Assembly (NCBI GenBank): GCA_035568395.1
Contig: DATMOF010000006.1
Location: forward strand, 28,393-92,392
DNA length: 64,000 nt
DNA from: Mucilaginibacter sp.
GTDB lineage: Bacteria > Bacteroidota > Bacteroidia > Sphingobacteriales > Sphingobacteriaceae
Reading direction: 5' to 3'
Each line of letters begins with the position of its first letter. The first letter of the stretch is position 1. The position numbers were made by a program, and so were the translations under genes. Positions 45,469 to 54,814 of this stretch are shown in pieces. The notes under the pieces were generated by a model. The model worked only from the letters and a program-made list of their open reading frames with translations. It ran no database searches and was not told where the DNA came from.

Positions 45469-47376
45469 TTAATCGCTTTTAGTAAGGTGCCCGCCAACAA
45501 TAATGCCCTTTATTGGCCCGGTTCCTAGTCCGTCCTTTAATACCATCCTGTGGGCGGCCTCATCGATCAGACCAAGTTCAGCAAAAGACAGGCTTTGACC
45601 GAACAATTTATTTTGTGGATTTACAAAGTAGACAACCGTCAGCCCAATTGTCCATCCAGGCAATGGCGTTGTATTATTACCCCAGTACGAATAACTAATA
45701 CCCGAACTCCAGTTAGCCGGAATGCTGGCCGAAACCCCAACAATAAAACTTCCCGAGTTGGTTACTGTGGTTTTAGGCAGGTTTATAGCCGGGCTTGGGC
45801 CGGGCGTACCACATGAAAATGCTACCTGCGCACCTACGGGTACATTAGTACAAGTAATGATAACGGCCATTTGTGCGGCTTGAGTTCCCTGGGTGTAGTT
45901 GACTGTTTGTGTAAACGTCGGGCTGCCATTATTCACTACAACGACATTACGCCAACCCATACCCCGGTTATTGGCTATATAAGATGCAAAATCCTGTATG
46001 GTGCCGGTTTGAGGTATGGGGTTAGGATTCGCGGTGGTAACTATACGGCCTATAAGACAATAATGATCGCCTGAGATCATCTGCGGCTGCCACGTGAAAG
46101 GATTGGCACCTACCGCCACATTACCCTGGTTTGTTGAAGGTATGGGCACAGAAGTAGCGCCGTCGCTGGTTTTGAGTATGTTGTTCTGCCACAGCGAGGG
46201 GTAAAGCAGCAACGAAGCAGGGCTATAGTATAAAGAAAAACTACCGTTATCGCTACCGGATGACAGGTTTTTGGCCCGCATATAAATATAGTTCTGGGCA
46301 TTTGCAATAAGATCCTGGCCGACGTCGCTATTATAGTTATTCGTAAAGAAAGAAACCGGGTCTGCAACAGGCGCAGTACCAAAAGGTATTATGTCAGGCG
46401 AGGTACTTAATGTACCGGCTGCTGGTACTGTACCAGCATCATCCAGGTTATCTCTTAAAAAAAGATCGTTGTAAAGCGGGTAAATCGTGCTGTAGGAATC
46501 TATACCGCTCATCACCGCGTCTATGCCGCACTGGCCATACCCAATCCAGAAAAATCCGGACATCCCCCACCCGTCTCCCCAGCTGTTTTTACATAGCCAG
46601 GCTTGCAGGTTATCATCATAACCTATACAACAAACACAGTGCCCGCCCACGTTGGCACCGCTGGTATGTATATAAACGCCGGAAGAGTAGCTATAAAAAT
46701 CTTCGTAAACCGTGAAACAGGCCGTCAAAGGACCACGGGTTGATAACCACAGCTTCATATCATTTATTGAATTGATATCATGCCAGGCGCTTAATTTAGT
46801 CACCGTGCTTTGCCAGCCGGCACAAAGATTACAGGGTTGGTCACCGGCTGTATAAGGAAAGCAAGCTATCGGAACCAGGCCGGTACTTGTGCAGTAGGTT
46901 AACGCTGGCTCCACCCACCACCCGTTCCCGCAATTACGCCCTTGGGCCGCACCGCCACAATAAAAAAGCTGCGCTTCGGAAAGGTCAGGCAGCGCGCCGC
47001 CACCGGCATCATTTACAGCAAGATTAACGGCAACCCGTGCTGTGGCCTCTACATTTGCGGTTACGCCAAACGCTACACATGAGCCGCAACTGCCCTGATT
47101 TTTCACGGAGCTGATAAAGTTACGACCGTTTACGTTCCGCCAGTCGAATGACTGCGTTATGGCAACGCGTAGTGCTGCAAACTGAACTAAGTTTCTTTTT
47201 GCGATTGCTTCCCGCTCCGCGAGCGAAGGTTCATTTGGGCCGGGTGTGTAACCCAGCCGCATTTTTCTTTCAAAATCTGAAAGTTTAAGCATGGATGTCT
47301 CACCTGCTTCCCATTTGGCGCCACTTTTGAGCAACTGCTGCTTCAAAGCGCTGAGGGCTTTTTTATCTATGGGCAT
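45469..47376 (-). CDS. Papain-like (C1) cysteine protease fused to a ~334-aa domain of unknown function
   Basis: FDWRN mature start; QGSCGSC (Cys100), GGHCVCCIGY (His246) and KNSWG (Asn264). The C-terminal domain is paralogous to 47710-48723. No signal peptide seen. Confidence 0.9.
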   Translation of the reverse strand: MPIDKKALSALKQQLLKSGAKWEAGETSMLKLSDFERKMRLGYTPGPNEPSLAEREAIAKRNLVQFAALRVAITQSFDWRNVNGRNFISSVKNQGSCGSCVAFGVTANVEATARVAVNLAVNDAGGGALPDLSEAQLFYCGGAAQGRNCGNGWWVEPALTYCTSTGLVPIACFPYTAGDQPCNLCAGWQSTVTKLSAWHDINSINDMKLWLSTRGPLTACFTVYEDFYSYSSGVYIHTSGANVGGHCVCCIGYDDNLQAWLCKNSWGDGWGMSGFFWIGYGQCGIDAVMSGIDSYSTIYPLYNDLFLRDNLDDAGTVPAAGTLSTSPDIIPFGTAPVADPVSFFTNNYNSDVGQDLIANAQNYIYMRAKNLSSGSDNGSFSLYYSPASLLLYPSLWQNNILKTSDGATSVPIPSTNQGNVAVGANPFTWQPQMISGDHYCLIGRIVTTANPNPIPQTGTIQDFASYIANNRGMGWRNVVVVNNGSPTFTQTVNYTQGTQAAQMAVIITCTNVPVGAQVAFSCGTPGPSPAINLPKTTVTNSGSFIVGVSASIPANWSSGISYSYWGNNTTPLPGWTIGLTVVYFVNPQNKLFGQSLSFAELGLIDEAAHRMVLKDGLGTGPIKGIIVGGHLTKSD

Positions 47377-47380
47377 TTCT

Positions 47381-47695
47381 TTAATTTTTAGTGTGAATGA
47401 TAAACGAATGCTTTTTTACAGCTGAAGACAGCCCAACCCAGGGCTGTATGAGGTTTACCTTCAATTCAAATTCGCCGGTTTTATTGATGCGTAACCTGAA
47501 TGTTCTCTTTCCACCCCCACCAATTCCCGACTCCTGATTTAACAGGTATTTGCTTTCCATTAGCGATATGGCATCGTCAAGGGCTTCAAATTGCCACTGG
47601 TACCCGCTGGTGGGGGTTTCGTCAAGTTCAATAATAAATGGTTCCGCTACTTTAACCGTTAAATTATTTGACTGCTTTGCTGTAATTATTTGCAT
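47381..47695 (-). CDS. Chagasin-like protease inhibitor (I42)
   Basis: ELDETPTSGYQW, GIGGGG and IQPW correspond to the three chagasin loops (NPTTGY-W, GxGG, RPW). Confidence 0.85.
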   Translation of the reverse strand: MQIITAKQSNNLTVKVAEPFIIELDETPTSGYQWQFEALDDAISLMESKYLLNQESGIGGGGKRTFRLRINKTGEFELKVNLIQPWVGLSSAVKKHSFIIHTKN

Positions 47696-47709
47696 ACATT
47701 ATAAAATAG

Positions 47710-48723
47710 TTAATTGCTTTGCGTGGTATGGCCGCCCACAATAAACCCCCGTATGGGGCCTATTCCAATACTGTTATTAAGCATTTTTCTGTGCTCGCGT
47801 TCCGGTAAACCAAGTTTCTTAAAGCTGAGTGCATGTTTGAACAGCTCATTGGTGCTGTTTACGAAATATACGACAGTTAAAGTGATGTTCCAACCCGGTA
47901 GCGGCGTCGTATTATTTGCCCAGTACGAATAGCTGATATTGGACACAAAATTGGCCGGTATGTTAGTGGACACGCCTACTACAAAACTGCCAGAATTAGT
48001 GACAGTGGTTTGGGGGAGGTTGATCGGCGGATTAGGGCCTGTGGTGCCGCATGAAAACGATACGGATGCACCTACCGGTACATTTGTACAGGTGATGATA
48101 ACGGACATCGGCCCGCCCTGCGTTCCCTGCTCGTAGTTGACAGACTGAGTGAAGGTAGGACTACCGTTATCGACCACAGTTACATTACGCCAGCCCATCC
48201 CGCGGTTATTGGCGATGTAGTTTGCAAAATCATTTATCGCGCCGGTTTGCGGTATAGGATTCGGATTGTTCGGTGTAACAATGCGGCCAATGAGGCAGTA
48301 GTGATCGCCGGATATCATTTGCGGCTGCCAGGTAAACGGGTTGGTGCCGACTACAATATCGCCTGCGTTGGCTGCCGCCACCGGCACCGAAGTTGCCCCA
48401 TCACTGGTGGCAAGGATATTGCTTTGCCATAAAGAAGGATAAAGCAGTAACGAAGCCGGGCTGTAGTAAAGTGAAAAGCTACCGGTTTCAGCGCCTGCCG
48501 CCAAGTTTTTGGCCCGCATGTAAATATAATTTTGCGCTCTGGCTACCAGGTCCTTCCCGACATCACTACCATAGTTGCCGGTAAAAAAAGTAGCAGGATC
48601 AGTAACCGGTGATTGTCCATACGGAATAATATCCGGCGAACTGCTAATTGCTCCGGTGGCAGGCACACTGCCTGTGTCACCAAGATTGTCCCTTAAAAAA
48701 AGGTCGTTGTACGTTGTTGGCAT
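47710..48723 (-). CDS. Stand-alone copy of the unknown domain (337 aa)
   Basis: Long identical runs with the protease C-terminus, e.g. GSFSLYYSPASLLLYPSLWQ and NPFTWQPQMISGDHYCLIGRIVT. Confidence 0.85.
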   Translation of the reverse strand: MPTTYNDLFLRDNLGDTGSVPATGAISSSPDIIPYGQSPVTDPATFFTGNYGSDVGKDLVARAQNYIYMRAKNLAAGAETGSFSLYYSPASLLLYPSLWQSNILATSDGATSVPVAAANAGDIVVGTNPFTWQPQMISGDHYCLIGRIVTPNNPNPIPQTGAINDFANYIANNRGMGWRNVTVVDNGSPTFTQSVNYEQGTQGGPMSVIITCTNVPVGASVSFSCGTTGPNPPINLPQTTVTNSGSFVVGVSTNIPANFVSNISYSYWANNTTPLPGWNITLTVVYFVNSTNELFKHALSFKKLGLPEREHRKMLNNSIGIGPIRGFIVGGHTTQSN

Positions 48724-49249
48724 AAGATTTAGATTAAATTGTGATTAAAAACTATTTGTTTAAGTCGTTACACTGCCTTTAAGTAGGCTTAAGATCAAGT
48801 TAAAAGAAAGGAATATGTTTAAGATATGGTGGCGCGATAACGCGGTCATTACATCAACAATGAAAATTTCGAAAATTATCTCTATGAATAAAATTTATTA
48901 CACGAAAGAGACTATAAGATAGATAACCAGGCTTATTCCACGGTCACAATAAATTGCTTGAAAGTTAAAGCCGGGTTACTCTTTTCGACCATTAGTCATC
49001 GCGTATTCCGTTCAGAGGCAACCCCGGTTGACACGCTGCCAAACGAACGTCAGTTTGATAACCAATAATGCAGCGTAATACGATAAATTACACAGAGGCG
49101 CCTCCGCTTTTCCTATCGCATTATTTACACAGTACGATCGGCGCAATGGAGTTATATTGATGCACAATGTTTAGATAATTAGCAAAATCGTTTCTTTTTA
49201 ATTATAATTTAGATTAACTTACAGGCACGATTTATAAACCCTTATCATC

Positions 49250-54463: not shown

Positions 54464-54499
54464 ATTTTCCTATAATTCCCGGTTTTTAAATAAAGAACG

Positions 54500-54675
54500 C
54501 TATTCGTCTCATCGAACACCGCCTTCACCATTTCTTTTACCCAGATCATCTTATCGGCCTTTTTGGGATGCTTCAAAAAATACGCGTTCCGCTCGGCGAA
54601 GTGCCAGTCGATTACCTCCATACAGGCATCCAGCGATTCATAATCCCTGTTTAATTGATATACTTTTTTGCAGAA
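54500..54675 (-). mobile_element. Probable degenerate transposase C-terminal fragment (IS630-like)
   Basis: Minus frame reads ..LNRDYESLDACMEVIDWHFAERNAYFLKHPKKADKMIWVKE.., which from memory resembles the NSDY..V..C..AID.YF.ERN..F..NP..AG..IWGKE tail of some IS630-family transposases. No start or terminal repeats found. Confidence 0.45.
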
Positions 54676-54702
54676 AACCGCTTAAAAGAGCTTTAAACGC
54701 AG

Positions 54703-54728
54703 AAAAGCCTTACTTTCGTAAGGCTTTT
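54703..54728. terminator. Terminator downstream of tRNA-Asp
   Basis: AAAAGCCTTAC-loop-GTAAGGCTTTT. Confidence 0.8.
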
Positions 54729-54740
54729 TCAATGTTTCCG

Positions 54741-54814
54741 CGGAATGGACGGGACTCGAACCCGCGACCCCGTGCGTGACAGGCACGTATTCTAACCAGC
54801 TGAACTACCACTCC
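54741..54814 (-). tRNA. tRNA-Asp(GTC)
   Basis: GGAGTGGTAGTTCAGCTGGTTAGAATACGTGCCTGTCACGCACGGGGTCGCGGGTTCGAGTCCCGTCCATTCCG forms a full cloverleaf with anticodon GTC; CCA is not encoded. Confidence 0.97.

Follow-up and report, generated by a model that had tools for sequence, protein, structure and literature searches.

The closest described counterparts of the locus reported here are the class I lanthipeptide clusters, such as that of nisin and, in Bacteroidota, those of the pinensins and from Chryseobacterium and Runella (PMC7268733, PMC9993889), the LytTR-dependent pheromone circuits of Firmicutes (agrBDCA, comCDE, blp and pln), the pairs of chagasin-type inhibitors and papain-family peptidases, and the tRNA-linked genomic islands. 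The locus lies in a 64,000-nucleotide stretch of DNA from Mucilaginibacter sp. (Sphingobacteriaceae, Bacteroidota; assembly GCA_035568395.1, contig DATMOF010000006.1, positions 28,393 to 92,392), hereafter called the window, in a genome of 4.07 Mb that is 99.8% complete. It consists of a compact four-gene cassette (module A, 49191-54463), which encodes a LanB dehydratase, a PF06580 histidine kinase, a LytTR response regulator and a Thr-rich precursor peptide with a DPTT motif, and of a divergently transcribed protease operon (module B, 45469-48723) with genes for a 337-residue beta-sandwich protein, a chagasin and a C1 peptidase (Table 1). Probably, two mobile modules landed side by side at an integration hotspot, and the regulator of the cassette may now read on the protease operon too.

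The cassette resembles class I clusters such as that of nisin (NisABTCIPRK) in having a full-length two-domain LanB and a small precursor with a leader and a Ser/Thr-rich core, and, as with NisRK, a two-component system is encoded within it. Both the glutamylation and the elimination domain of LanB are present, the alignment matches the NisB and 9g04 structures, and the motif RPTPFG was seen. Unlike in the class I clusters, there is no LanC at the locus, and no PF05147 match at E<=0.1 in the genome; likewise, no C39 peptidase (PF03412) was found in the genome, and the cassette is accompanied neither by LanT, LanP nor by immunity genes. A dedicated exporter or leader peptidase (LanT/C39 or LanP) was missing from all 22 LanB cassettes compared. 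The two-component system also differs from NisR and NisK, which are of the OmpR type, in that the regulator is of the LytTR type and the kinase of the PF06580 type. About four N-terminal hydrophobic helices precede the PF06580 domain of the kinase, and the closest NCBIfam resemblance of the regulator is to BtsR, under the cut-off of that model. The genome encodes one LanB and six LytTR regulators.

The 47-residue precursor (MKVLKKKINLNAKSVFKFQKSMPKAGSPETTDPTTSTSTTVSTLMGF) has a Lys-rich leader with the motif VFKF(K/Q)K and a Cys-free, Thr/Ser-rich core with the motif DPTT, and a hairpin (53613-53647) with a T-run was found 3' of its gene by sequence inspection. Homologous small open reading frames (ORFs) occupy the same position beside the kinase in relatives and form one family, with a Lys-rich leader ending in a VFKFKK-like sequence and a Thr-rich core that mostly contains (D/P)PTT; many of its members have Gly as the penultimate residue and an aromatic or hydrophobic residue last. 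The precursors of some relatives contain one or two cysteine residues, that of the window none. Without a cyclase in the genome or a cysteine in its core, the peptide cannot become a lanthipeptide or contain lanthionine. From the sequence we infer that it would be a linear peptide rich in dehydrobutyrine and dehydroalanine.

As in the chagasin-cruzipain pair and the bacterial inhibitors of cysteine peptidases, an I42 inhibitor is encoded in module B directly beside a catalytically intact papain-family peptidase. In the catalytic domain of the latter (residues 73-288), alignment to dipeptidyl peptidase 1 (3pdf) shows that the Gln/Cys motif (NQGSCGSC), the His motif (GGHCV) and the Asn motif (KNSWG) are retained, and with them the Cys/His/Asn triad; a C-terminal beta-sandwich region of about 335 residues follows. 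The 337-residue protein is a stand-alone copy of this region (74% identity with peptidase residues 300-634), seen also as direct repeat D1. The similarity of the free copy and the tethered domain suggests either ongoing gene conversion or selection for mimicry, the free copy being a decoy or a partner. An AlphaFold model of the 337-residue protein consists of tandem beta-sandwich domains (predicted local distance difference test score, pLDDT, 85), and Foldseek returned only generic FnIII/Ig-like tandem sandwiches (RbmA, transglutaminase C-terminal domains) with TM scores of about 0.2. The regions 45469-46476 and 47710-48723 match each other at 74% within the genome, and each matches either copy in other genomes at 64-75%. 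No NCBIfam or PADLOC match was obtained for the proteins of the operon or for the precursor peptide. A strong hairpin with an 18-bp stem (45404-45442, minus strand) terminates the operon.

Module B differs from the known I42/C1 pairs in being a fixed three-gene operon with a free copy of the C-terminal tandem beta-sandwich of the peptidase, in lacking signal peptides, and in its spread across phyla by horizontal transfer. No hydrophobic signal sequence is seen at the N-terminus of any of the three proteins (judged by eye from the translations and not with a predictor), and the module therefore appears to be cytoplasmic. The three genes recur in this order, at 51-69% identity, at loci L067-L070, none of which has a LanB; at L069 the operon adjoins conjugation genes (TraG, DUF4133, DUF4134). 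Homologues of the C1 peptidase at 40-69% identity occur in several phyla, with full-length homologues at 40-50% in Phenylobacterium, Desulfobaculum, Solirubrobacterales, Gemmatimonadota and Yinghuangia. The family is thus present in Alphaproteobacteria, Desulfobacterota, Actinomycetota and Gemmatimonadota with no such cassette nearby, and module B behaves as a self-restrained protease unit that has spread across phyla by horizontal transfer.

The conservation of the cassette was assessed in a family sample of 201 genomes, an evenly drawn subset, and in a large protein collection. LanB homologues were present in 52 of the 201 genomes, all at <=40% identity, and 20 kb were taken around the best 16 of these; kinase and LytTR regulator adjoin LanB in 15 of the 16 best loci, and all else differs. 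Among 22 distinct LanB loci with variable flanks, kinase and regulator adjoin LanB in 21 (with kinases 38-71% identical to that of the window) and a precursor-type ORF could be read in 20. The order LanB (+), kinase (-), small ORF (+), regulator (+) recurs in the five closest relatives examined (LanB identity 63% in P0002, 46% in P0003, 41-42% in P0006 and P0007, and 39% in P0011) and in the more distant locus L076, and an alternative order, LanB (+), regulator (-), kinase (-), precursor (+), was found in P0009 (39%) as in the family sample. The neighbours of the same-order cassettes are unrelated to one another: Era/Der GTPases, a MarR regulator with a major facilitator superfamily (MFS) transporter, an outer-membrane protein, an AraC regulator, and a TolB-like/S26 set. 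The identities of kinase and regulator track that of LanB (63/71/73%, 46/53/56% and 41/50/57% for LanB, kinase and regulator), as expected for a unit that is inherited together. In the nearest congeners, LanB genes are found only at other loci and at <=38% identity. No publication describing a cassette of LanB, PF06580 kinase, LytTR regulator and Thr-rich precursor was found in an incomplete search of the literature. In L076, from Mucilaginibacter gilvus, positions 2959-6728 encode, divergently from lanB, a 70-residue secreted peptide, a TolB-like protein, an uncharacterised protein, an S26 peptidase and a thioredoxin-like protein, a set that may be another peptide-maturation module.

The two modules were not found next to each other outside the window. 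C1 peptidase, chagasin and the 337-residue protein are absent from all 22 distinct LanB loci, and LanB is absent from all three distinct protease operons examined elsewhere. In the 201-genome sample, four other genomes carry homologues of both modules, always on different contigs. Because of these counts the modules are very probably independent and not co-inherited, and their adjacency is seen in this strain alone. An earlier note on this DNA, made from the sequence of the window, had proposed that they may form one quorum-controlled island and had named the lack of co-occurrence in other genomes as one of two observations that would speak against it; no adjacency elsewhere was found, and as a co-inherited unit the island is not supported.

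What may connect the modules is a control element. When the 220 nucleotides (nt) upstream of 17 precursor genes were aligned, a conserved element of 42 nt was found, roughly tTCATCTAcaGCAaa - spacer - tTGGTGTAAtAAAtTT, in which the boxes CATCTA and GGTGTAA start 21 nt apart; in 15 of the 17 loci the distance from the GGTGTAA box to the precursor ATG is 56-65 nt. In agr- and com-type systems, LytTR sites lie upstream of an autoregulated peptide gene and comprise a pair of imperfect boxes separated by two helical turns, as in the direct repeats bound by AgrA and ComE. The element found here resembles these repeats in its two imperfect boxes, its 21-nt period and its location before the peptide gene as well as before further targets, and is by this analogy a candidate LytTR site. 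The gene content is likewise reminiscent of the Firmicutes circuits, in which a peptide gene also lies by genes for a polytopic membrane kinase and a LytTR regulator. It differs from agr and com in the kinase, which belongs to PF06580 and not to the HPK10 type of AgrC and ComD, in the use of a LanB dehydratase for maturation instead of AgrB or the C39 exporter ComAB, and in the diderm host, with neither an export function nor an AgrB- or ComA-type gene encoded in the cassette.

In a scan of the genome with a position-specific scoring matrix (PSSM) of the element, the site before the precursor gene ranked first, and a site on the minus strand at 48887-48928 ranked second of 8.13 million positions (score 25.0; next match 19.9). 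To avoid circularity, the PSSM was rebuilt from 11 other genomes, omitting the window and its closest relative; it gave 26.3 for the precursor site, 26.2 for 48887-48928 and 20.0 for the third match. With a 32-nt core matrix restricted to the boxes, the same two sites ranked second and third. A further GTGTAA box (53717-53722) is located 27 nt before the ATG of the regulator gene, which may be under the same control. In three congeneric genomes (L033 8060-8160, L034 1680-1785 and L035 14748-14850), a conserved stretch of about 45 nt, gtgtcctgatgggctt.taa.ttcg.cc..., follows a second copy of the element, and no ORF lies where the usual spacing would place one; the stretch might represent a small RNA or a long leader.

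The copy at 48887-48928 lies in the intergenic region between the two modules and points toward the protease operon. Its end is 164 nt before the ATG of the 337-residue protein, its start is 322 nt from the lanB ATG with an orientation opposite to lanB, and no terminator was found between it and position 48723. In the same region, four GTGTAA boxes are present, all on the minus strand (at 48773, 48903, 49093 and 49130), a density of four same-strand boxes within 526 bp that occurs at only three places in the genome; the other two are G000:C2:1057643-1058374 and C2:1858351-1858879. The proposed LytTR control of the protease operon is based on this second copy together with the three extra GTGTAA boxes that face the operon. 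A decayed second precursor downstream of 48887-48928 was sought, and only a 29-residue ORF without resemblance to the precursor family was found; the box at 48773, 50 nt before the ATG, is out of register for a full element and was counted as a half-box; and the 14-nt repeat D10 (48727, 49207) was dropped for an orientation inconsistent with the two genes.

The position of the second copy differs among the relatives. In those of the window's type (L063-L065, L074 and L076), it is located 31-108 nt upstream of lanB and in the orientation of lanB. In other cassettes it stands before neighbours that do not belong to the cassette: in L066 the gene of an outer-membrane protein located ahead of lanB, in L041 a receiver-domain gene that diverges from lanB, and in L034 a helix-turn-helix (HTH) gene. 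A second copy is missing altogether from L061, the closest cassette relative, whose homology to the window begins only 59 nt before lanB, at 49191. Since L061 and the other protease operons are without the copy, and 48724-49190 has no homology to the upstream DNA of the relatives of either module, the second copy is, judged from these alignments, a feature of this particular junction that faces the protease operon. The earlier note had supposed that LytTR may act at both divergent promoters and had found no convincing direct-repeat site; a conserved two-box element is now present at both of the locations it had singled out, one copy facing the protease operon, and the coupling that this implies is probable at best and unproven.

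The block that holds both modules (44895-54739, 9.85 kb) is absent from the closest sampled congener, G220, in which a neighbouring MFS transporter is 98% identical in protein sequence. On the right flank, nucleotide homology to G220 breaks off exactly at base 54740, the 3' end of a tRNA-Asp gene that is the only one of its sequence in the genome. On the left, the polysaccharide locus 32673-44894 is 88% identical in nucleotide sequence in G220, on another contig, and homology ends at about 44894; in G220 this locus is followed by glpK and glpF, both of which are on a different contig in the present genome. The neighbourhood of the polysaccharide locus is rearranged between close relatives, and the araBDA genes (28400-32370) have no DNA match in G220. 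A tyrosine integrase is located about 250-480 bp beyond the same tRNA-Asp in four congeners (G220, G202, G224 and G232), and the site is therefore a recurrent, variable integration hotspot in the genus. The island of G220 at this site (L049, G220:C36, 1-13235), probably one with a defence function, is headed by an integrase and encodes a reverse transcriptase along with an Mrr/NACHT-like ATPase-nuclease and a PIN_12 protein.

The block thus resembles tRNA-linked genomic islands in its edge at the 3' end of a tRNA gene, in its strain-specific content, and in sharing the tRNA with integrase-bearing (defence) islands of congeners. It differs from them in lacking both an integrase and an att repeat, in showing no clear compositional contrast, and in its left edge at a relocated polysaccharide locus. 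No integrase was found within 44895-54739, the tRNA 3' end is not duplicated, and the repeat search around the block gave only short, chance-level repeats. Since the two flanks lie apart in relatives, an empty site could not be reconstructed: the nearest congeners have an integrase island or other neighbours at the tRNA, and the polysaccharide locus is placed elsewhere. At the right end of the block, a relic frame is 47% identical to the last 55 or so residues of a 515-residue protein of the congener G165, which scores 27.4 bits with Pfam DDE_3, just under the gathering cut-off of 28.6, and matches HTH_23, a resemblance of the IS630 type. The relic fragment itself has no Pfam match at E<=10, and no intact copy of its transposase is present in the genome. 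In the left junction, no Pfam match was found in any frame (E<=10). Much of the description in the earlier note was upheld by these results: the gene content and divergent layout (by Pfam, translations and ARAGORN), the placement of the block between the polysaccharide locus and the 3' side of tRNA-Asp (by the synteny breaks at about 44894 and 54740), the transposase-like relic (by its tail homology) and the lack of an att duplication. In the comparison with relatives that it had proposed, the block was missing from G220, and an empty tRNA-Asp site was not recovered. We consider it probable that the block is a strain-specific mosaic at the tRNA-Asp hotspot, made up of two independent, separately mobile modules.

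Table 1. Features of the locus, with positions in the window
Feature	Position	Strand	Remarks
Sus-type polysaccharide locus	32673-44894		Left neighbour of the block
Left junction spacer, AT-rich	44895-45468		36.8% GC; between polysaccharide locus and protease operon
C1 papain-family peptidase	45469-47376	-	635 aa; Pfam PF00112, E=1e-37
Chagasin-family (I42) cysteine-peptidase inhibitor	47381-47695	-	104 aa; Pfam PF09394, E=1.4e-16
337-residue protein, tandem beta-sandwich predicted	47710-48723	-	No Pfam match
Divergent lanB/protease intergenic region	48724-49249		526 bp; 35% GC
Second full copy of the two-box element	48887-48928	-	GGTTATCTATCTTATAGTCTCTTTCGTGTAATAAATTTTATT; toward protease operon; inside the lanB/protease intergenic region
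Full-length LanB	49250-52276	+	1008 aa; Pfam Lant_dehydr_N and Lant_dehydr_C (PF04738, E=6e-82, and PF14028, E=3e-57); TIGR03891
Membrane histidine kinase	52284-53357	-	357 aa; PF06580 His_kinase; convergent with lanB
Two-box element at the precursor gene	53373-53414	+	TTCCATCTATTGCTTATCGCGATTGGTGTAAAATGTTCTTTA; GGTGTAA box 62 nt before ATG; best PSSM match in genome
Precursor ORF	53459-53602	+	47 aa; from translation; divergent from kinase
LytTR-family response regulator	53744-54463	+	239 aa; Pfam PF00072 and PF04397
IS630-like transposase relic	54467-54681	-	C-terminal ~55 residues; by homology to a congener
tRNA-Asp(GTC)	54740-54814	-	ARAGORN

Regulatory coupling of the LytTR system to the protease operon is, as far as the sequence can tell, close to an even chance, and is held to that level because the site is 164 nt from the start codon and could act on lanB in reverse. 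Several points weigh against the coupling and the mechanism built on it. In precursor genes, the end of the element is only about 20-40 nt from the ATG, compared with the 164 nt before the operon; the element is absent from protease operons elsewhere; the closest cassette relative does without a second copy; and the copy in the window may instead serve lanB, 322 nt away and in reverse orientation. In addition, the home-made PSSM was built from only 11-13 sequences, the identity of the element as a LytTR site comes by analogy only, the absence of signal peptides was judged without a predictor, and the cassette encodes neither an exporter nor a protease of its own. Some of the same facts favour a pure juxtaposition of the modules at the hotspot, with no shared regulation and with 48887-48928 either serving lanB or being a non-functional leftover of a rearranged cassette end. 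The second copy does belong to lanB in L063, L074 and L076, the lanB of the window has no copy in its own orientation, and 48887-48928 may thus be a displaced or inverted lanB site, 164 nt from the start of an operon whose relatives use other promoters. Against this stand the orientation of the full element and of all four GTGTAA boxes toward the protease operon, the lanB of L061, which manages without any copy in a cassette whose homology starts at 49191, and the cassettes that place a copy before non-cassette neighbours (L041, L066 and L034). Mere juxtaposition is a possible explanation, and a rather unlikely one.

Two readings in which the modules belong together from the outset fare worse. 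That they are one functional, co-inherited quorum-controlled island, with the C1 protease as its secreted, density-dependent output or as its leader peptidase, is suggested by their adjacency and divergence within one strain-specific block and by the shared element in the intergenic region. A leader peptidase is indeed missing, with no C39 peptidase in the genome and no protease in the cassette, and since C1 and C39 peptidases share one clan, this kinship counts for the idea. However, it is very unlikely in view of the co-occurrence counts (0 of 22 and 0 of 3), the separate contigs in genomes that have both modules, the occurrence of the protease family in four phylum- or class-level groups away from any cassette, and the protease having its own inhibitor and no visible signal peptide. 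The leader-peptidase role that the earlier note had offered as an alternative is accordingly very doubtful: the operon is self-contained, occurs in several phyla without LanB, and accompanies no other cassette. A density-dependent protease output, as also suggested there, is doubtful, and a secreted one unlikely, because export signals are lacking. Joint arrival of both modules on one tRNA-Asp integrative element, since deprived of its integrase and att sites and with the IS630-like relic as a sign of decay, would account for the boundary exactly at the tRNA 3' end, for the integrases beside the same tRNA in four congeners, for the relic at the junction and for the absence of the block from G220; one relative of the protease operon, moreover, lies beside conjugation genes. 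It is nevertheless improbable, as neither integrase nor att repeat is present, the left flank is itself relocated with respect to G220 and G224 so that no empty site can be reconstructed, and the nearest relatives and contexts of the two modules are unrelated.

Under the favoured reading, of two mobile modules at a hotspot with the cassette regulator reading on the protease operon, LanB would dehydrate the Cys-free, Thr-rich precursor to a linear peptide rich in dehydrobutyrine and dehydroalanine. The membrane-embedded PF06580 kinase and the LytTR regulator would probably sense this product, or membrane stress tied to it, and the regulator would then switch on the precursor gene through the two-box element, giving a positive loop like that of agr or nisin. 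In most relatives lanB has the same element. In the window, the LytTR system would also control the protease operon, captured as cargo, with transcription running leftward from the second copy. A more speculative extension is that the cyclase-less LanB cassette is the Bacteroidota counterpart of agr and that the captured cytoplasmic operon of protease, inhibitor and decoy is its regulated output, the peptide signal, sensed by the cassette's own kinase and regulator, gating an intracellular proteolytic switch and not a secreted enzyme; we regard this as a tentative idea and rather unlikely to hold in full.

For annotation, the 'lantibiotic dehydratase' of this locus cannot yield a lanthipeptide, and the adjacent protease should not be labelled a LanP-like peptidase of the cassette. 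The locus offers compact objects for the study of cyclase-free LanB enzymes: two DNA sites, one regulator, a 47-residue substrate and one protease operon. If the coupling is true, it would mean that a small mobile peptide-sensing cassette in Gram-negative Bacteroidota gains targets by means of an operator placed before a neighbouring operon.

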